Positions 1 to 30,911 of a stretch of DNA of 31,906 nt are shown here, one piece after another (position 1 is the first letter of the stretch; each line of letters opens with the position of its first letter). The translations under genes and the position numbers were made by a program. This DNA is from an uncultured Ignavibacteria bacterium (GTDB lineage Bacteria > Bacteroidota > Ignavibacteria > Kapaibacteriales > UBA2268), in the NCBI GenBank assembly GCA_903911805.1, contig CAIWET010000612.1, positions 1-31,906 of the forward strand. The letters run 5' to 3'. The notes under the pieces are model-generated. The model made no database searches. It worked only from the letters and a program-made list of their open reading frames with translations, and was not told where the DNA came from.

Positions 1-3
1 AAT

Positions 4-535
4 GTAGAGACAGGTCTTAGACCTGTCTTTTTTATATATTTCGAATGTCATGCCGCACTTGATGCGGCATCTTCGTTTATAAAAACGCCCACCACACGCC
101 CCACCCTAAATCCCTCCCCTTGAAGGGAGGGACTTAAAGAAAAGAGAAAAATTATGTCACTTTATGGTTTATCAAATCTATCTTAAATAAATGATTTTAC
201 AATACTTACTTCCCCTCCTTCTGTAAGGAGGGGTGCCTGAATTCTTATTCAGGTGGGGTGGTTATTTCTTTTATTAATAAAACGCTCTCATCAAACCTCT
301 CCCTGTCCTTCGACAAGCTCAGGAACCGTTCCTCTCCAAAGGAGATAGACTTAAAGAAAAGAATCTTTTCTTCCCCCTCTATCAAGAGGTGGTTAGGGGG
401 TGTGTTTTTAAAGAAATTAAGATGACCACCCCGTCAAAACGTGCATGAATACACGTTTTGCCACCCCTCCTTATAAAAGGAGGGGAAAATCGATAGTGGA
501 ATTAATATTAGTAGAGACAGGTCTTAGACCTGTCT
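4..535. repeat. Mosaic REP-like cluster 1: GTAG hairpin A (4-28, 511-535), TGTC hairpin B (46-72), C (97-135), D variants (210-262 reverse, 423-517 forward), E (371-404 reverse)
   Basis: A = GTAG+AGACAGGTCT-T-AGACCTGTCT; B = TGTC+ATGCCGCA-CTTGA-TGCGGCAT; C = CCCCACCCTAAA+TCCCTCCC-CTTGAA-GGGAGGGA; D = CCACCCCGTCA-hairpin-TGCCACCCCTC-hairpin. Each recurs elsewhere in the window. Confidence 0.9.
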
Positions 536-542
536 TTTTTTA

Positions 543-2246
543 TATTACGATTACAATAATATTGGGGCTGTTTCGCAAATTTCTTCATTTAGAGATATGA
601 ATGATACCAATTTTGTCGAAAAATTTTCGTATAATAGTGATGGTAGAATTAAGCAATATGTAAAAAGATTTTTTGGTGAGCTTTTGAATACTTGTGGTGA
701 AATAGAGCCTACTTCTTATGATGTTTATTCTTTGGACAATTCCGAAGATTGGCGTTATCGCTATTCCCCACTTGGCGGAAGAGAACAAAAGCGGCTCTAC
801 TATTCCCCTCAGGGTGACGGAAAATGTTATCCTTTCTCAAATTATCATCCTTGGACTTATTATGTTTTGGGTGCTAATGGTGAGCAAACTGCAGTTTATA
901 AGGGTGTGCAAACTAGCGATTAGGACACTTGCAATAATCAAACAAGAAGAGTTTATATGTATGCACATTCGTTTATTAATGCGGGTGGAATGCTTGTAAA
1001 TCTTGCTAATATGGGCAAACAATATAATTTTTTGGATAATCTTGGTTCGGTCAGGGTTACGATTGATGCTGAAGGTATTCACGGCTACGACTATAAGCCT
1101 TTTGGTGATACATTAATGGCTGATGGTGAAAATAGAATTGGATTTGCAGCACAGGAGCGAGACGAAGAATCGAGATATTTTGCTATGGGAGCAAGGCAGT
1201 ACGATTGTTTATCTGGTAGATTTCTTTCTTTAGACCCTCTTATGGATAAATTCCCTGAGCAGAGCCCTTATTCTTATGCCAACAACAACCCAATTTCTTT
1301 CAAAGACCCAACGGGATTAGAGCCAGAGGGCGAAAAAGGAAAAGATGAAGTGCAGACTCAAGTAGGAATAACAGAAGAACAATATTATGGTGCATATTTA
1401 GCATTTAGATCATTTAATGATGAAATAAATTCATATCGTAAAATGTAAGAAGATGTGATGGGAATAGACGATCAAGATGGATTTGATAATTTCTATAAAT
1501 ATAAAAAATTCAATTTTGGAGCTGGAGGTGGCAGTTCTGAAGGAACTAGAATAGGTATAAATTCTTCAAATGGAACTTATAACATAAAATCAAGTATGGA
1601 ATTTGATGATTATGGTAATTATTCATATACAAGTAAAATATTTAATGAAAATGGCGCATATGAGGTAACTCAATGTGGTACTGTTTCAGAAGAAGGAGAA
1701 TATATACCTGAATATACTTCAACTGAACTTATTGTTAATGATGGAGTTGACGCAAATGAATGGATTTCTGGAGCAATGGGTGCATTATCTGAAATTGGTG
1801 GCCTTGCTTTAGATGGAGTAGGAATGGTACCTGGACCGGTTGGTGTAGCAGCAAATATATTAAGTGCAGGATTGTCTGTATATAAAGGCGATTATGCTCA
1901 AGCAGGACTTGGATTATTGGGAGCTGCTTTGGGAGGGGTTCCTATTGCTAAAGTAATATCAAGAGCTCTAAAATCAGAGTGGACGGTCTATAAAGGAGTA
2001 GAAGCAGGCACAGATCTAATTAAATATGTAGGAATTACTTCAAGAGATGTTAATATTAGGTTTATAGAACATCTTCGAAAAGGCGGAGAATGGTCTTTAC
2101 TGAATTATGAAGCAATTTCAAAAACTTCTTATTTTGGAGCAAGAAAACTGGAGCAAAAAATAATTAATGAGTATGGTATTAATAATTTATTAAATAAAAG
2201 AAATAGTATAAGAAGGATTTTTTGGAGTAGTTATGGAATTGAATAA
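543..2246 (+). pseudogene. 5'-truncated Rhs/YD-repeat polymorphic toxin with two in-frame stops (TAG 921-923, TAA 1446-1448): Rhs core end, DPTGL junction, PT-TG-like segment, GIY-YIG-like C-terminal nuclease
   Basis: ORFs 597-923, 957-1448 and 1455-2246 share one frame. YD-like text (YYDYNNIG, FSYNSDGRIK) extends upstream of ATG 597 to about 543. The Rhs core signature (LGSVR...YDYKPFG...GARQYD...GRFLSLDP...SPYSYANNNPISFKDPTGL) is present. Confidence 0.85.
1455..2246 (+). CDS. Rhs C-terminal toxin portion (PT-TG-like hydrophobic segment plus GIY-YIG-like nuclease); open after the second stop
   Basis: ALDGVGMVPGPVGVAANILSAGLSVYKGDY resembles pre-toxin TG segments. TVYKG...YVGITSRDVNIRFIEH...EQKIINEYG...LLNKRNSI resembles the GIY-YIG motifs. 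Confidence 0.65.
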   Translation: MMGIDDQDGFDNFYKYKKFNFGAGGGSSEGTRIGINSSNGTYNIKSSMEFDDYGNYSYTSKIFNENGAYEVTQCGTVSEEGEYIPEYTSTELIVNDGVDANEWISGAMGALSEIGGLALDGVGMVPGPVGVAANILSAGLSVYKGDYAQAGLGLLGAALGGVPIAKVISRALKSEWTVYKGVEAGTDLIKYVGITSRDVNIRFIEHLRKGGEWSLLNYEAISKTSYFGARKLEQKIINEYGINNLLNKRNSIRRIFWSSYGIE

Positions 2247-2715
2247 AAAACGTATACAAAGAAAAACGGGTGATATTTATAAATTTAATAGTAAATATCT
2301 AGAAAATGAATATTTTCAATTTATTTTTGAGGATAAAGAATATTTAGGAGGTGATTTAATTAGAGGATTTGTAAATGAGCAAAAGAATGAACTTGAAATT
2401 AAAGAAATTTTAGACTTACCAATAAAATATTATACTTATACATGCATTATTCCTGGTTATAAATTTGATTATTGGGATAAAATTGGAAATATTTCAATTG
2501 AAGAAGATTTTATAGCACCACCTTTTAAATGTTTATTGGGTGATTTGAAAAATGATCAATTGCATTATTATTGGTACTTACATCAACCAGGCATAAGAGA
2601 AGATATATTTATTGGTGATTATAATAATATTTTAGATGAATATTTTAAGGCTTCTGTACGTATGCCTGTTCCGCTAATAAATTGGATTCAGATTGGTTGT
2701 GATAAAAACAGTTAG
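2233..2715 (+). CDS. Cognate immunity protein, Imm26-like
   Basis: Overlaps the toxin end by 14 bp. N-terminal KRIQRKTGDIY, GDLIRGF and WDKIGN resemble the Imm26 pattern as recalled. Confidence 0.6.
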   Translation: MELNKKRIQRKTGDIYKFNSKYLENEYFQFIFEDKEYLGGDLIRGFVNEQKNELEIKEILDLPIKYYTYTCIIPGYKFDYWDKIGNISIEEDFIAPPFKCLLGDLKNDQLHYYWYLHQPGIREDIFIGDYNNILDEYFKASVRMPVPLINWIQIGCDKNS

Positions 2716-2844
2716 CCATATATGAAAACTGAAATAATAAATTTAGTAGGAATTTTTATTTGAAATATAAATAAAAATGAGATTTAGATTATATAAATAT
2801 GAGTACAGAAAGCCAAAATAGTATAAAATTTATTGACAAAATAA

Positions 2845-3411
2845 ATGAACAAAGAGATTATGACAATATTGAATTTAAATAAGAATATTATTAAAATCAC
2901 TTCCCCTTTCCCAGTGCAGCCGCAGCAATACGACTGCACTATTGGGCATAATTCCCCTCTTGAGGGGTGGCAGACGAAGTCTGACGGGGTGGAATCTTCA
3001 AAGAAAAATCAATTGCCCTTATTTAAATATTTTTCGCTTCCAAAAAACAAAAATTTAATAGAAAAAGCTAAAGAACTTAGGAAAGCAGGAAATTTATCTG
3101 AAGTTATTTTTTGGAAAACATTTAAAAATAAAGAGTTATTGGGCTGGGATATAGATAGGCAAGTAATTATTGGAAATTATATTGTAGATTTTATCATAAA
3201 TGAATTAGGACTTGTTTTTGAAATTGATGGTTATAGCCATAATTTAAAAGGTGAATATGATTTAGAAAGAGAATCATATTTGGAATCACTCAATTTAGAA
3301 ATAATTCACTTTAGAGATATTGAAATCAAAAAAGATATTGAAAATGTAAAGAAAAGTGTTAAATTTGCTATCGAGAAAAGGATAAATGATTTGAGGAAAG
3401 CTGATGATTAA
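2845..3411 (+). CDS. DUF559 / Vsr-like (PD-(D/E)XK-type) endonuclease; the true start may be downstream (e.g. TTG 3013)
   Basis: KAKELRKAGNLSEVIFWK...DRQVIIGNYIVDF...LVFEIDGYSH...YDLERESYLESLNLEIIHF is the typical DUF559 motif series. The N-terminal about 50 codons read through the left repeat. Confidence 0.85.
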   Translation: MNKEIMTILNLNKNIIKITSPFPVQPQQYDCTIGHNSPLEGWQTKSDGVESSKKNQLPLFKYFSLPKNKNLIEKAKELRKAGNLSEVIFWKTFKNKELLGWDIDRQVIIGNYIVDFIINELGLVFEIDGYSHNLKGEYDLERESYLESLNLEIIHFRDIEIKKDIENVKKSVKFAIEKRINDLRKADD

Positions 3412-3476
3412 AGATTCCACCCCGTCATTGCATCGCATCAAGATGCTTCGCAATGCCACCCCTCAAGAGGGGAATT
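2950..3476. mobile_element. Putative REP-bounded DUF559 element with inverted terminal D repeats (2950-2998 and 3411-3476)
   Basis: Both ends read AAGATTCCACCCCGTCA-[hairpin]-TGCCACCCCTCAAGAGGGGAATT in opposite orientation. The 17-bp and 23-bp arms are perfectly inverted; the central hairpins differ (9 vs 26 nt). Mobility is inferred. Confidence 0.6.
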
Positions 3477-3481
3477 TTCTC

Positions 3482-3544
3482 TATGCAAACAACAACCCAA
3501 TTTCTTTCAAAGACCCAACAGGTCTTGAGCTAGAAGGCGAGAAA
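3482..3544 (+). pseudogene. 63-bp remnant of a second Rhs core/toxin junction (YANNNPISFKDPTGLELEGEK)
   Basis: 55/63 nt and 20/21 aa identical to 1275-1337. Confidence 0.85.
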
Positions 3545-3552
3545 CAACACCT

Positions 3553-3919
3553 AGATGCCGCATCAGGTGCGGCATGACATACAGAATAATTGACGAGATT
3601 CTTCGCTTTGCTTCAGTATAACCGCACACATTTGAATGCTTCGCATTCACTCATTCAGGGATGAATGAGCTACTATTTTCTACTCTTCAAGTCCCTCCCT
3701 TCAAGGGGAGGGAGTTAGGGTGGGGTTGGACGAAGGCGCCATTTTTAAACGTAGATGCCGCATCAGGTGCGGCATGACATTACGAAAAGGTTAACTCGAT
3801 CCTTCACTTCGTTCAGGATGACGGAATTGAAGAAAGACAGGTCTAAGACCTGTCTCTACAAATTTCATTTCATTTTCTTCAAGTCCCTCCATTAAAGGGG
3901 AGGGATTTAGGGTGGGGCG
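3553..3919. repeat. Mosaic REP-like cluster 2: B (3553-3579, 3753-3779), CGTC-like hairpins (3596-3622, 3798-3823), second GTAG hairpin (3650-3673), C (3689-3725, 3881-3919), A (3835-3859); all reverse orientation
   Basis: Direct sequence matches to cluster 1 units; lies between the convergent DUF559 and pccB genes. Confidence 0.9.
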
Positions 3920-3958
3920 TCTTTTTCTTAAAGTCCCACCCTTAACAGGAGGCGAATT

Positions 3959-5524
3959 TTACAATGGAATACATCCGTGTTTTTTATGTGGATTGCTGTC
4001 CACTTTGTTTTCTAATAAAGCAAAAGCATCAGCTAATCTTGCTCTAGTGAACTTTGGTTCAAATACTTCATCTATAAATCCATAAGAAGCTGCTACATAA
4101 GGATTTGCGAATTTATCTGTAAATTCATTTGTCAATTCAATTTCTTTTTCTGCAGGATTTTCAGCAGCTTCAATTTCACGTTTAAAGATAATTTCTACTG
4201 CACCTTTTGCACCCATTACTGCTAATTCAGCTGTGGGCCAAGCAAAATTGAAATCTCCGCGAATATGCTTTGAATTCATCACATCGTAAGCTCCGCCATA
4301 AGCTTTGCGCGTGATTACTGTGATTTTTGGTACTGTTGCCTCGCAATATGCATAAAGCAATTTTGCACCATTAGTGATGATTCCTTCCCATTCCTGATGT
4401 GCGCCAGGCATAAATCCTGGTACGTCTTCTAATGTCAAGATTGGAATATTGAATGCATCGCAAAAGCGAATAAATCTTGCAGCTTTTCTTGATGAATTGA
4501 TATCCAAAACTCCTGCCATAATCATTGGTTGATTTGCAATCACTCCGATTGATCTACCGGCAATTCTGATAAATCCAACAATAATATTTTCTGCATAATC
4601 TTTATGAACTTCCAAAAATTCGCCTTTATCAGCCAATTTTTTAATCACTTCTTTCATATCATAAGGTTGATTTGGATTAGCAGGAACAATGTAATTCAAT
4701 TCATCAATAATGCGGTTTCCTGGATCATTCATTTCCTTGAAAGGTGCATCTTCAGCGTTATTCGAAGGGATATATGACATAATTTGCTTTGCTATTTCCA
4801 TTGCGTGAATATCATTTTCGGCAACAAAATGTGCCACACCGCTTTTGCTCGCGTGAACTTCAGCGCCACCGAGTTCCTCGGAAGTCAAATCTTCGTGAGT
4901 TACTGTTTTTACAACTTTTGGACCTGTAACGAACATATAAGAGGTATTTTTTACCATAATGATAAAGTCTGTGATAGCCGGAGAATAAACTGCTCCACCA
5001 GCGCAAGGACCCATTATTACAGAAATTTGAGGCACTACTCCAGAAGCAAGTGTATTCCTAAGGAAAATATCGGCATAAGCGCCAAGCGAGGTAACTCCCT
5101 CTTGCACACGGGCACCACCGGAATCATTCAATCCGATAACAGGGCAACCAGTTTTGATAGCCATATCCATAATTTTGCAGATTTTTTTACCGTGCTCAGC
5201 AGCAAGAGAACCGCCAAGAACTGTGAAATCTTGGGAATAAACAAATGTTTTTACTCCATTTACTGTTCCATAGCCAGTTATTACGCCATCGCCAAGAAAT
5301 ACGTCTTTATCAAGACCAAATTCGCTTGAATGATGATGGACAAGAGCATCAATTTCTCTGAAAGAGCCACTATCTAATAGAATTTCAATTCTTTCACGAG
5401 CTGTTAATTTTCCTTTTGCATATTGAGATTCGATTCTTTTTTTGCCACCACCTTGTTTAGATTTGGCAATCAGTTCATACATTTTTTTGATTTTAGCATC
5501 AATAATTTCGTTATTATTCATCAT
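3959..5524 (-). CDS. pccB: Acyl-CoA (propionyl-CoA/methylmalonyl-CoA) carboxylase carboxyltransferase beta subunit
   Basis: [57 protein letters not shown] and KKHGCIPL motifs; 521 aa. Confidence 0.93.
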
Positions 5525-10224: not shown

Positions 10225-11891
10225 TTCTTTAAAAAACTATAAGTTTTATCATTAAGTTTTATGAGATAAATTCCTTTTGGCAATGATGAAACATCTATTC
10301 TCAAACTTTCATTTTCTAAAACAAAAGGAGATTTAATCTTTTCTCCTAATTGATTATAGATTTCCAAATTGTAGCCTTCAATATTTGAAGTAATTTGATT
10401 ATCAAGTTTTATATTAATAAAATCGCTTGTGGGATTTGGATAAATCTCAGCTGTTTGGTCCAATTCTTCAATACCAACTGGATTTTTCATGATAAAAATT
10501 CCTGATTTACCATATTCCATATCGGTATCATTATTGAATAATGCCCTTAAAACAGCAGTTTTTGTGTCAGTATTTGGTACTTTCCAATCGTAATATCCGT
10601 TAATTGCATTAACAGAATATGCAATATTAATCCAGCTTTTTCCACCATCAATACTATATTCTAGGTCAAAGTCAGAAAGATTTACAAATGTCCATCTAAC
10701 GCGATAAGTTTTATTCACTAAAATTGTTTCATTGAGAATTGGATTTTTGAAAGTTAAATTTCCCTGAAGAATTTTAAATGTACCTGATTGGCAAATTTCT
10801 TTTCCAGTTTCAAAATCAATCATTCTAACCAAAGCAGATTTAGTGGTTACGCTTGGAATTTTCCAGGTTAATTCGCCAACTGAAGCAATTACAGGTGAAG
10901 CAATCAACGTCCACGAACTTCCACCGTTAGTAGAAACATCAAATTTGAGTTTATTAAATCCTTGGCAAGTCCATTGAAGTACATCAGATTTGCCTCCATA
11001 ATAAAGAGCATCGCCAGAAGAAGGTCTCAAGAAATATGAAAATCCAGGAAATACTGAAAATTCTGGTGTTTGAGACAAAACAGCTTTTGAAGCACTATCA
11101 ATTAATCTTATTGAACAATGCTGAGAATTTGCTAATGGAATTGTCCAGGTATAAGATAATTTTGAGGACATAATAGGTTTTGGTTCAAGATAAACCCAAT
11201 CATTGCCATCAGTTGTAAATTGAATATAAATTGGATAATTAGCTGTTGATGTCCATTTTATATCAGTTTTTCTGTCGGGATAAAATGATTCACCACCAAC
11301 AGGTGAAACCAATTTAGCAGAATAAAGCAAGAATTCTTTAAAATCTGATCTGGTTGTTAATATATTAATATTAGTATTATTTATAGTTCTGATAATTGTG
11401 CTTGTATGCCAACTGAAAACAAATGAAGTATTTACATTTAAAATCTTGAATCTTAATGTGCCAAGATATGTTTTAGTTTTTGGAACAATTAACCCTGGCA
11501 ATTGAGGCTTAGCCGTAGTGTCATAATTGATTTCAATAGTTTGGTAATCTAATTTGATTGAATCAGGAGGATAACTGGTGATTGCTTTATATCCTTTTGG
11601 CAATTTATTATTAAAAATAATTGATGTATCAGTAAGCAAAGATTCAAATTTAAGCTTAGTTTTGTCATAATTGAAAGCAAAAGTACTTCGCCCAAGATAA
11701 AAATCATCACCATCGCTCTGAATATAAGTTTTCAAATCAATGTAATTACCATTAATTATTGGTTCAGCAATAAGATTACAACTTATCAGCTTAGGAGACG
11801 CCAGGTCTTTAGACAAAGTATTTAATGATAATGATAAAAAAATCAAAATCAGAAAACAAGCTCTATTTATTAAATTTATATACATATTCAA
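10221..11891 (-). CDS. T9SS-secreted protein: signal peptide, cohesin-like domain, three Ig-like PxGGE...I.W repeats, type-A CTD
   Basis: CTD IYPNPTSDFINI...IYNQLG...IDVSSLPKGIYLIK; three similar domains of about 90 aa. Confidence 0.8.
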   Translation of the reverse strand: MNMYINLINRACFLILIFLSLSLNTLSKDLASPKLISCNLIAEPIINGNYIDLKTYIQSDGDDFYLGRSTFAFNYDKTKLKFESLLTDTSIIFNNKLPKGYKAITSYPPDSIKLDYQTIEINYDTTAKPQLPGLIVPKTKTYLGTLRFKILNVNTSFVFSWHTSTIIRTINNTNINILTTRSDFKEFLLYSAKLVSPVGGESFYPDRKTDIKWTSTANYPIYIQFTTDGNDWVYLEPKPIMSSKLSYTWTIPLANSQHCSIRLIDSASKAVLSQTPEFSVFPGFSYFLRPSSGDALYYGGKSDVLQWTCQGFNKLKFDVSTNGGSSWTLIASPVIASVGELTWKIPSVTTKSALVRMIDFETGKEICQSGTFKILQGNLTFKNPILNETILVNKTYRVRWTFVNLSDFDLEYSIDGGKSWINIAYSVNAINGYYDWKVPNTDTKTAVLRALFNNDTDMEYGKSGIFIMKNPVGIEELDQTAEIYPNPTSDFINIKLDNQITSNIEGYNLEIYNQLGEKIKSPFVLENESLRIDVSSLPKGIYLIKLNDKTYSFLKN

Positions 11892-18654: not shown

Positions 18655-19066
18655 CCCCTCCCTAAATCCCTCTCCAAAAGAGAGGGACTGGAAGAAAAGG
18701 AATAATCTTTGTAGAGACAGGTCTAAAGACCTGTCTTTTTTATTTTTTTTGCAAGGTGTCATGCCGCACTTCGGTGTGGCATCTACGTCTAGAAAATCGA
18801 CAACCACTCGCCCCACCCTAAATCCCTCCCCTTGAAGGGAGGGACTGGAAGAAAGAGAACTATTTATCTCTTAACTAAATGATTCTACTATATTTACTTC
18901 CCATCCTTCAGTATGGAGGGGTGGCAAAACGTGTATTCATGAATGTTTTGACGGGGTGGTCACTTTTCTTTCTTAAGAGAAACACACCCCCTGTCCCCCT
19001 CTTGATAGAGGGGGGAAAAGACATTTATTTCTTCAAATCCCTGCCCTCGCAAGCAGGGACTTGAAG
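18655..19066. repeat. Mosaic REP-like cluster 4: C variant (18655-18689), A (18711-18736), B (18757-18784), C (18809-18846), D reverse (18901-18963), E (18982-19017), hairpin 19031-19066
   Basis: The A-B-C block and its linkers parallel 4-135; lies between the convergent smc and OmpA genes. Confidence 0.9.
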
Positions 19067-30484: not shown

Positions 30485-30911
30485 CTACTAATATCAATTC
30501 TACCATCAATTTTCCCCTCCTTTTATAAGGAGGGGTGGCAAAACGTGTATTCATACACGTTTTGACGGGGTGGTCACTTTTAATACCAATATTTTCAAAC
30601 GTAGATTCCTGCTTTCGCAGGAATGACAAAATTTAAAAGACACACCCCCTGACCCCCCTCTTGATAGAGGGGGAATTAAGAGAGATGCCGCATCAAGTGC
30701 GGCATGACATACCAATTAATTCTTCACTTCGACATTAATTATTCAATATTCGTTAGTCGATAATTTCTTCTCTTTAAGTCCCTCCATTAATGGGGAGGGA
30801 TTTTGGGTGGGGTGTGACCTGGGCGTTTTTTTCAAACGTAGATGAAGCATCAAGTGCGGCATGACTTCACGAAAATGTTTAATGCGATTCTTCGCTTTGA
30901 TCAGAATGACG
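30352..30911. repeat. Mosaic REP-like cluster 5: TIR unit, D reverse (30482-30576), TGTC hairpin (30603-30628), E (30640-30675), B (30683-30709, 30840-30865), C (30776-30814), CGTC hairpin (30886-30911)
   Basis: The 95-bp block 30482-30576 is the reverse complement of 423-517 with 5 mismatches; lies between convergent genes. Confidence 0.9.

Follow-up and report, generated by a model that had tools for sequence, protein, structure and literature searches.

DUF559 nuclease genes with inverted triplex-type repeats at both ends: a probable insertion cassette that can be translated within host genes

In a stretch of 31,906 nucleotides from an uncultured Ignavibacteria bacterium (contig CAIWET010000612.1, the whole of which is referred to as the window), a gene for a small DUF559 nuclease lies between two inverted copies of a structured repeat. 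Our analysis indicates that this arrangement is very probably a discrete unit with triplex-type ends, a cassette, which is inserted as a whole and can persist as translated sequence within host genes. The nuclease and its two ends travel together across phyla, and nuclease lineage and repeat family go together both within this genome and across phyla.

The window is part of a MAG with 30% G+C and 654 contigs; one of its housekeeping genes is most similar to those of Ignavibacteria MAGs (78-79%), in line with a probable Ignavibacteria-like bacterium of the Bacteroidota. The outer arms of the cassette (2950-2972 and 3454-3476; 23 nt) are inverted and 100% complementary, and the inner arms (2982-3001 and 3408-3427; 20 nt) are 95% complementary with a perfect core of 17 nt, which agrees with the inverted arms of 17 and 23 bp described in the initial annotation. 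Likewise, the right copy was correctly said to begin at the last base of the stop codon (stop 3409-3411, right repeat from 3411). The cassette and its immediate flanks comprise the following features:

2845..3411, + strand: open frame of 188 aa, leading from an Rhs-like fragment through the left repeat into the DUF559 nuclease
2908..2949, + strand: left host flank, a coding remnant of an Rhs core that reads ..VQPQQYDCTIG, in frame with the cassette
2950..2998, + strand: left end, a D1 triplex-type repeat (motif finder; DNA folding gives two hairpins and a free G-box), with a Y-arm at 2954-2959, an R-arm at 2962-2967, a linker hairpin at about 2971-2983 and a mirror G-box at 2986-2991
3411..3476, - strand: right end, a D1 repeat in inverted orientation, whose linker hairpin is longer (26 nt vs 9)
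3477..3547, + strand: right host flank, an orphan Rhs fragment that reads ..YANNNPISFKDPTGLELEGEK (ORF 3404-3577)

The frame that opens at ATG 2845 crosses the Rhs remnant and the left repeat, which is translated in the same frame as the nuclease, and contains the Pfam match to DUF559 at nt 3055-3366. An alternative nuclease start is TTG 3013; after the left repeat, there is no in-frame ATG. On the other side, ORF 3404-3577 reads the second box of the right repeat and the Rhs flank in one frame. As the frame of the cassette is open from its left end, the cassette can sit translated in host genes. This in-frame habit and the mirror-symmetric (triplex-type) nature of the repeat were not mentioned in the initial annotation.

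The orphan Rhs fragment on the right side of the window cassette reads YANNNPISFKDPTGLE. In a paralogous orphan module on contig C232, the same left stretch is followed directly by RFLSLDP..YANNNP, with the cassette absent and both Rhs pieces connected by the normal 19 codons. Since this paralog joins the Rhs pieces without a cassette, the window cassette too sits within coding sequence. Other local copies of the cassette were found on C241 (frameshifted) and on C357 and C30 (both cut by contig ends). All four local copies have common Rhs flanks extending past the repeats; they are segmental copies or strain variants in Rhs arrays, not independent insertions or transposition products.

Neighbouring genes in the window comprise Rhs fragments, a toxin/immunity-like pair and an acyl-CoA carboxylase subunit; a methylase is absent. 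The orphan Rhs module itself spans 597-2715 and contains an Rhs core end in two pieces (597-923 and 957-1448) with a PxxxxDPxGL-type motif, a 263-aa C-terminal domain (1455-2246) without a Pfam match and an overlapping 160-aa ORF (2233-2715). By position alone, the ORFs 1455-2246 and 2233-2715 read as a toxin/immunity-like pair. Contigs from four freshwater/lake runs include a joint from 2947 to 3482 that bypasses the cassette, with sides of just 24-30 nt and the intervening letters not seen; we rejected excision as its cause and read it as cassette-less Rhs paralogs like the one on C232. Contigs of runs X2 and X4 join ~3002-3006 to ~3328-3337 with 3 or 24 other letters between sides of 26-30 nt. 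These latter joints (3002/3006 to 3328/3337) could possibly be cassette derivatives from other populations that lack most of the nuclease ORF, which is too thin a basis for a claim.

DUF559 is a very large protein family, and we know of no role assigned to it. The nuclease of the window comprises ~130 aa with DUF559 as its sole domain; its ORF matches the Pfam family (PF04480) with E=3.4e-23 and 82 bits (cut-off 20.6), and a whole-genome scan finds the same place. The catalytic D, E-x-D, H and D residues are invariant across 17 homologs. For the structure model, which is confident (pLDDT 86.8), the best solved fold is the DUF559 structure 3HRL (Foldseek TM 0.87 by target, rmsd 1.6; phmmer E=3.7e-9), followed by the I-Bth0305I homing endonuclease catalytic domain (3R3P; TM 0.79 by target, E=8e-4), while Vsr (1CW0) is distant at rank 12 (TM 0.42). 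Based on the model, the nuclease is predicted to adopt an EDxHD/Vsr-type PD-(D/E)xK fold. The homing use of the EDxHD enzyme I-Bth0305I (PDB 3R3P; PMC3239194) documents a selfish role for the Vsr-type fold. With respect to the Vsr mismatch endonuclease itself, the fold is distant and the window neighbours include no C5 cytosine methylase partner.

Each D repeat consists of a short C-rich/G-rich hairpin, a variable second hairpin and a G-box that stays unpaired in DNA folding. This G-box is complementary to nothing; its sequence is that of the purine arm in mirror order, with T in place of A. The layout points to a class II purine-motif intrastrand triplex of the BoxC/PIT/TM kind as defined by Holder et al. 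2015 (PMC4666352), in which a pyrimidine arm and a purine arm precede a reverse-Hoogsteen arm; the latter is a mirror image of the purine arm and places T or A opposite A. With a D1 stem of only 6 nt, the assignment as triplex type is known here from sequence layout and computed folds; actual triplex formation has been demonstrated solely for TMECO (PMC4666352). Further features in common with the BoxC/PIT/TM and TMECO repeats are the richness in G and C, the intergenic location, the occasional inverted pairs and, in family E, even a TTA-type second loop. In contrast, the D1 stem is short, its second loop holds a whole additional hairpin and its sequence is unlike the TMECO consensus. A finder for the mirror rule detected 356 motifs in the genome and 19 in its reversed version. 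The rule applies to each major family (E/H, J, D1, D2/D3 and F/G), with T opposite A in all, and the D scaffold occurs 49 times genome-wide vs 0 for the pattern read backwards.

Next, we considered the repeats together with the DUF559 genes of the same genome. There are eight DUF559 matches, and inverted copies of triplex-type repeats bracket every locus with visible flanks. The flank family follows the lineage, with four families in four DUF559 lineages: D1 at the window locus (C612) and its three near copies, E at C635, H at C387, and F and G at C47 and C39, respectively. Identity amounts to 57% between C635 and C387 and to 62% between C47 and C39, and each of these pairs has sister repeat variants. 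Typically, the G-boxes point toward the gene; at C635, they point outward. A tight inverted pair of the same family was present at both ends of all complete DUF559 loci (4/4), whereas, among ~2750 other gene proxies, not one had inverted repeats of a single family no farther than 150 nt from each end. On C114, an ordinary gene is enclosed by a looser D2 pair, 104-170 nt away. The pairing of DUF559 and repeat is thus far beyond chance.

The restriction of tight pairs to DUF559 is difficult to reconcile with a passenger role of the gene, which we regard as rather unlikely. In this case, the repeats would multiply via host replication or repair or by means of another enzyme, repeat pairs would mobilise their contents, and DUF559 would be a frequent cargo with an unrelated task, for example repair or a defence connected with restriction-modification (RM). 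The genome does offer other enzymes, with five PF01797 Y1 transposase genes (on C141, C110, C31, C203 and C511), and triplex motifs mark rearrangement-prone loci in E. coli for which no enzyme is known (PMC4666352). However, none of the Y1 genes is at a cassette, and the RAYT-like gene on C110 has its own, different inverted flanks. As the Y1 genes carry other flanks, RAYT as driver of the D, E and F families was rejected.

Tight inverted flanks of their own were also seen at other genes: besides the Y1 transposase just mentioned (C110:14419-14757; RAYT-like, Pfam), these are small multi-copy-type genes at C547:688-1128 and C628:1323-1766. Read from their translations, they include a GxxExxY-like ORF, which looks like another PD-(D/E)xK family, and a four-helix-bundle ORF of the 23S-IVS-protein type.

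The association extends to other genomes. Among DUF559 loci from relatives and other phyla, 29/38 reached a flank inverted-repeat score of at least 15, compared to 2/135 shifted controls, and 26/39 carried a strict triplex motif on both sides; 90/122 motifs in those loci are no more than 220 nt away from a DUF559 end. The proteins closest to that of the window (55-66% aa) come from Brocadiaceae, another Planctomycetota MAG, Gracilibacteria and a MAG labelled Hyphomicrobiales. Their genes too are flanked by the D1 repeat, which matches that of the window at 40/42 nt, with the two differences forming a compensatory pair in the linker hairpin. That the ends follow the nuclease lineage and were kept at 95% while the genes drifted to 64-69% nucleotide identity further argues against DUF559 as mere cargo.

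On the other hand, gene and repeat do not strictly accompany each other. Four Brocadiaceae genomes hold D1 just as the two cassette ends, with no solo D copy. The related genomes G027 (16 near-identical D copies, located in intergenic mosaics) and G004 (4 copies) have no D-flanked DUF559 gene, and the window's own assembly contains no cognate gene for families J and D2/D3 (~75 copies, to which all solo D copies of the window belong). In a phylum sample of 121 genomes, with the criterion fixed beforehand, DUF559 occurred in 15/19 genomes with a CCCYCCC-type motif vs 55/102 without (79% of motif-bearing genomes vs a base rate of 54%; p=0.047, with related genomes not independent). Five phylum genomes have at least five hits, and one of these, the complete genome G109 (~8 motifs), has no DUF559. 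Together, the solo-free Brocadiaceae, the D copies of G027 and G004, the orphan families J and D2/D3 and the motifs of G109 are counter-examples to a strict association; repeats without a cognate gene (as in G027, G004 and G109 and in families J, D2 and D3) and genes without solo repeats are points in favour of the passenger role.

The cassette as a discrete unit is most clearly seen where filled and empty sites can be compared. In Brocadiaceae, hsdS carries the cassette in frame within its central conserved region, in one orientation in all genomes seen, and Pfam reads Methylase_S - DUF559 - Methylase_S in a single frame, with a repeat on each side of DUF559. Filled hsdS genes read ..CGCTTCCCC, cassette, GAAATGCAGG.., and empty ones in other genomes of the same family read ..CGCTTCCCC, 12 nt, GAAATGCAGG... 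Since hsdS homology ends at CGCTTCCCC and restarts at GAAATGCAGG, the borders of the cassette are the outer ends of its repeats. Its termini, ATTCCCCTC ... GAGGGGAAT, are identical on the window copy. The earlier proposal of an autonomous unit is supported in that the nuclease and its cognate inverted ends form a unit that looks autonomous. Empty sites in related genomes were found for hsdS in Brocadiaceae, but none for the window's own locus, where a strain-level empty site was sought and the exact neighbour protein has no record. The use of one orthologous hsdS site across several genera indicates that the insertion is old and stable there.

Elsewhere, cassettes of the same clade are located in frame in a type ISP restriction enzyme and upstream of thioredoxin in Gracilibacteria, and between unrelated genes in L031; an HsdM and a MmeI/Eco57I-like methylase contain more distant cassettes, again in frame. 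Recurrence in hsdS, type ISP, near thioredoxin and in the Rhs fragment identifies the cassette as a discrete insertion unit. That the in-frame hosts are often RM genes also suits a passenger with a defence-related job. In-frame RM hosts were recorded at L003 (G027), L001 (G020), L041 (Gracilibacteria) and L033/L037/L038, and comprise HsdM, MmeI/Eco57I-like methylase, type ISP and HsdS. A shared target motif, TTCCC .. GAAATG, was considered for the hsdS and Rhs sites; it is present in empty sites, and was dropped since the window copy lost that stretch.

The fixed orientation in hsdS also bears on the question of whether the inverted repeats flip the gene as an invertible switch, or pair in the transcript as an RNA-level regulatory or terminator structure. 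We consider this very improbable. The term 'DUF559 domain-containing protein' is indeed enriched among predicted programmed-inversion targets, with an odds ratio of 14 (PMC9881135), a list in which the joint presence of DUF559 and RM genes may be explained by in-frame residence in RM genes, and the repeats do fold into stable hairpins. However, the in-frame hsdS copies stand in a single orientation, and contigs of the four runs show no opposite-strand joint at 2950/3476, a weak point as it is based on contigs only. Moreover, the third, mirror-symmetric box does not pair in the Watson-Crick manner, and its conservation is that of a DNA-type triplex feature, and a Rfam search of positions 1-4200 matched no family, including intron families.

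For the spread of the cassette, we propose that its own nuclease acts on the cassette ends and drives a putative homing-like conversion, to which we assign a nearly even chance with a slight lean to doubt. The nuclease would recognise its own ends, either folded or as duplex, and cut there or at the target; host recombination repair would then copy the cassette, which amounts to homing-like gene conversion. Solo repeats would be non-autonomous relatives or by-products that multiply in some genomes only. The similarity to EDxHD homing endonucleases comprises the catalytic fold with its E, D, H and D residues and the presence of a selfish nuclease gene inside host genes, and the filled/empty hsdS pair looks like a homing product. 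Unlike these enzymes, the DUF559 cassette has no N-terminal NUMOD/HTH DNA-binding region and no intron or intein, its insert remains unspliced in the host protein (the hsdS frame reads through), and its ends are structured inverted repeats, a feature absent from homing endonuclease genes. Against a homing-like cassette stands the fact that a nuclease of 130 aa is unable to join DNA alone, as do the loose coupling of repeat and gene, the phylum sample with only 79% vs 54%, the single old hsdS site, the flanks shared by the four local copies and the one-sided motif at E. coli ycjD.

Solo copies of the repeat families in the window are located as follows:

100-132, - strand: family E copy
212..263, + strand: solo D2-like copy, the 'looser variant' (motif finder)
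424..485, - strand: solo D2 copy within an intergenic mosaic that combines several repeat types (fold z = -7.0)
3692..3724, + strand: solo family E copy, E being the flank family of the DUF559 paralog on C635
3884-3915, + strand: family E copy
18812-18844, - strand: family E copy
18901..18963, + strand: solo D2 variant with an imperfect first hairpin (motif finder)
30514..30575, + strand: solo D2 copy (motif finder)

The four D copies listed had been taken as gene-free copies of the same scaffold, which the nuclease would recognise, nick or spread. They are indeed present, but all belong to subfamily D2, which has a different first hairpin, whereas the cassette flanks are D1. Solo copies of D1, D3 and E/H, among other families, are found in frame within a single loop of the T9SS C-terminal sorting domain, flanked by ..IFNIFGEK and IDISNL.., where their stems co-vary and the frame is kept. 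A repeat is present in at least 40 of 119 T9SS tail-peptide matches, and other tails lack one; roughly 75 of the 119 matches are of the highly similar IDISNL type (..IDISNLPxGVYFIKIGDKFEKFVKM). D2 copies occur in intergenic mosaics alongside other repeat types. Overall, the placement of solo copies fits recombination copying between similar sequences better than cut-and-paste.

These observations speak against the nuclease as the agent that spread the scattered D copies: the window copies are of a subfamily without a cognate gene in the assembly, the D1 and D3 solo copies are parts of the T9SS C-terminal domain tail, itself a larger repeated unit, the four local cassettes share flanks beyond the repeats, cassettes persist in Brocadiaceae without solo D, and G027 and G004 have D copies without a D-flanked gene. 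We therefore find it rather doubtful that the nuclease also drives the solo copies in the manner of RAYT. Examples of T9SS tails with the repeat are found at C19:2215, C71:1733-2200 and C512:10657, and a repeat-free tail at window position 10298; on C71, three stop-ended tails follow each other in tandem, as if tail plus repeat were the copied unit itself. Rickettsia palindromic elements are also selfish structured repeats tolerated in frame in protein-coding genes. They resemble the T9SS-loop and hsdS repeats in this habit and differ in sequence and structure; we know of no nuclease gene associated with them.

The initial annotation had described the arrangement as RAYT-analogous. This comparison stands for the layout: as in REP/REPIN-RAYT systems (REPtrons), there is one small nuclease-type gene, inverted copies of a structured repeat around it and many solo copies, and separate paralogs each have their own cognate repeat family. 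It is not supported for the spread of solo repeats by the nuclease. In addition, the fold is PD-(D/E)xK (Vsr/EDxHD) instead of an HUH Y1 transposase (PF01797), the repeat is mirror-symmetric (triplex type) instead of a GTAG-headed palindrome, and DUF559 cassettes can exist without solo copies and are often translated in host genes.

A second precedent for this layout is provided by the Ssn nucleases (Chenal et al. 2025, PMC11893778). These cleave ssDNA at the NTS/SRM repeat, as was shown experimentally, and modulate transformation; the repeat reaches hundreds of copies in some genomes (PMC11893778). As with DUF559, a small nuclease gene has its own hairpin repeat on its 5' and 3' sides, the repeat is dispersed and the association extends across phyla. 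In contrast, the GIY-YIG fold and the NTS/SRM repeat are unrelated to the PD-(D/E)xK fold and the triplex repeat, and DUF559 is known here from sequence and model. DUF559 could thus be a site- or structure-specific nuclease or binder for a single-stranded triplex-type repeat in an Ssn-like partnership without mobilisation, acting for example during uptake, replication or conjugation and modulating recombination or transformation, while the flanks autoregulate or mark the gene and the repeats spread otherwise. We think this unlikely. It is in line with the Ssn genes flanked on both sides by their own repeat (PMC11893778), with purine-motif triplexes being a feature of DNA and not of RNA (PMC4666352) and with solo copies that are plentiful in certain genomes and missing in others. 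By itself, however, it leaves unexplained the block insertion with borders at the repeat ends, in frame in unrelated genes, and the Brocadiaceae retain the cassette though there is no other repeat copy to act on.

BoxC/PIT/TM triplex repeats have been known since the 1990s. The literature on them describes no partner protein (PMC4666352), and our literature search found no description of a DUF559/triplex-repeat cassette, the nearest systems being REP/RAYT, Ssn/NTS and EDxHD homing endonucleases. A link between DUF559 and REP was not found either, only the table row of predicted inversions (PMC9881135). The cassette therefore gives both the DUF559 family and the orphan class of triplex repeats a testable partner, and since its ends are defined, its sites are known both filled and empty, and nucleases pair with cognate repeats, both puzzles become open to bench experiments. 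Speculatively, DUF559 and the G/C-rich intrastrand-triplex repeats might constitute a third independent class of selfish nuclease-plus-repeat systems after RAYT/REP and Ssn/NTS. The protein would read folded, mirror-symmetric DNA at the ends of its own gene, spread in a homing-like manner and survive as a tolerated translated insert, doing the job of an intein without splicing. We lean against this wider reading but keep it in view. If true, it would explain the orphan BoxC/PIT/TM repeats too, and a nuclease that reads a DNA triplex or hairpin would represent a new recognition mode of practical interest like that of the Ssn enzymes. For genome annotation, HsdS, HsdM, type ISP and Rhs genes with the insert are easily mistaken for fusions, pseudogenes or phase-variable loci.

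Further repeats accompany the triplex type. A GTAG-headed, terminator-like hairpin repeat (1-40, 505-540, 3835-3862) and a hairpin repeat of the GTCATGCCGCA..TGCGGCATC type (45-75, 3548-3578, 3750-3780) are both dispersed; with the triplex repeats they form BIME-like mosaics, which also stand in inverted order around ordinary genes at 1.7-1.9 kb (C447, C647, C130 and C556). An E pair on C353 with a gap of 342 nt was rejected as a gene cassette, as it encloses no ORF, just other repeats. In the relatives G018 (C23, C24, C42, C75, C77 and C81) and G005 (C14, C31 and C445), triplex repeats form tight inverted doublets 20-200 nt apart, which is REPIN-like. One DUF559 gene of G018 (L004) has a doublet on either side; in G005 (81% complete), doublets are present and DUF559 was not found.

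Finally, E. coli K-12 ycjD (L047, NC_000913 1351407-1351760) is followed at ~190 nt by a TMECO type A repeat, its stop codon falls in a half-motif, and its upstream side has no more than an ordinary hairpin. With a clear motif on one side only, support is partial, and ycjD was set aside as an example of a clean cassette. The 3' end of ycjD is duplicated ~60 nt downstream.
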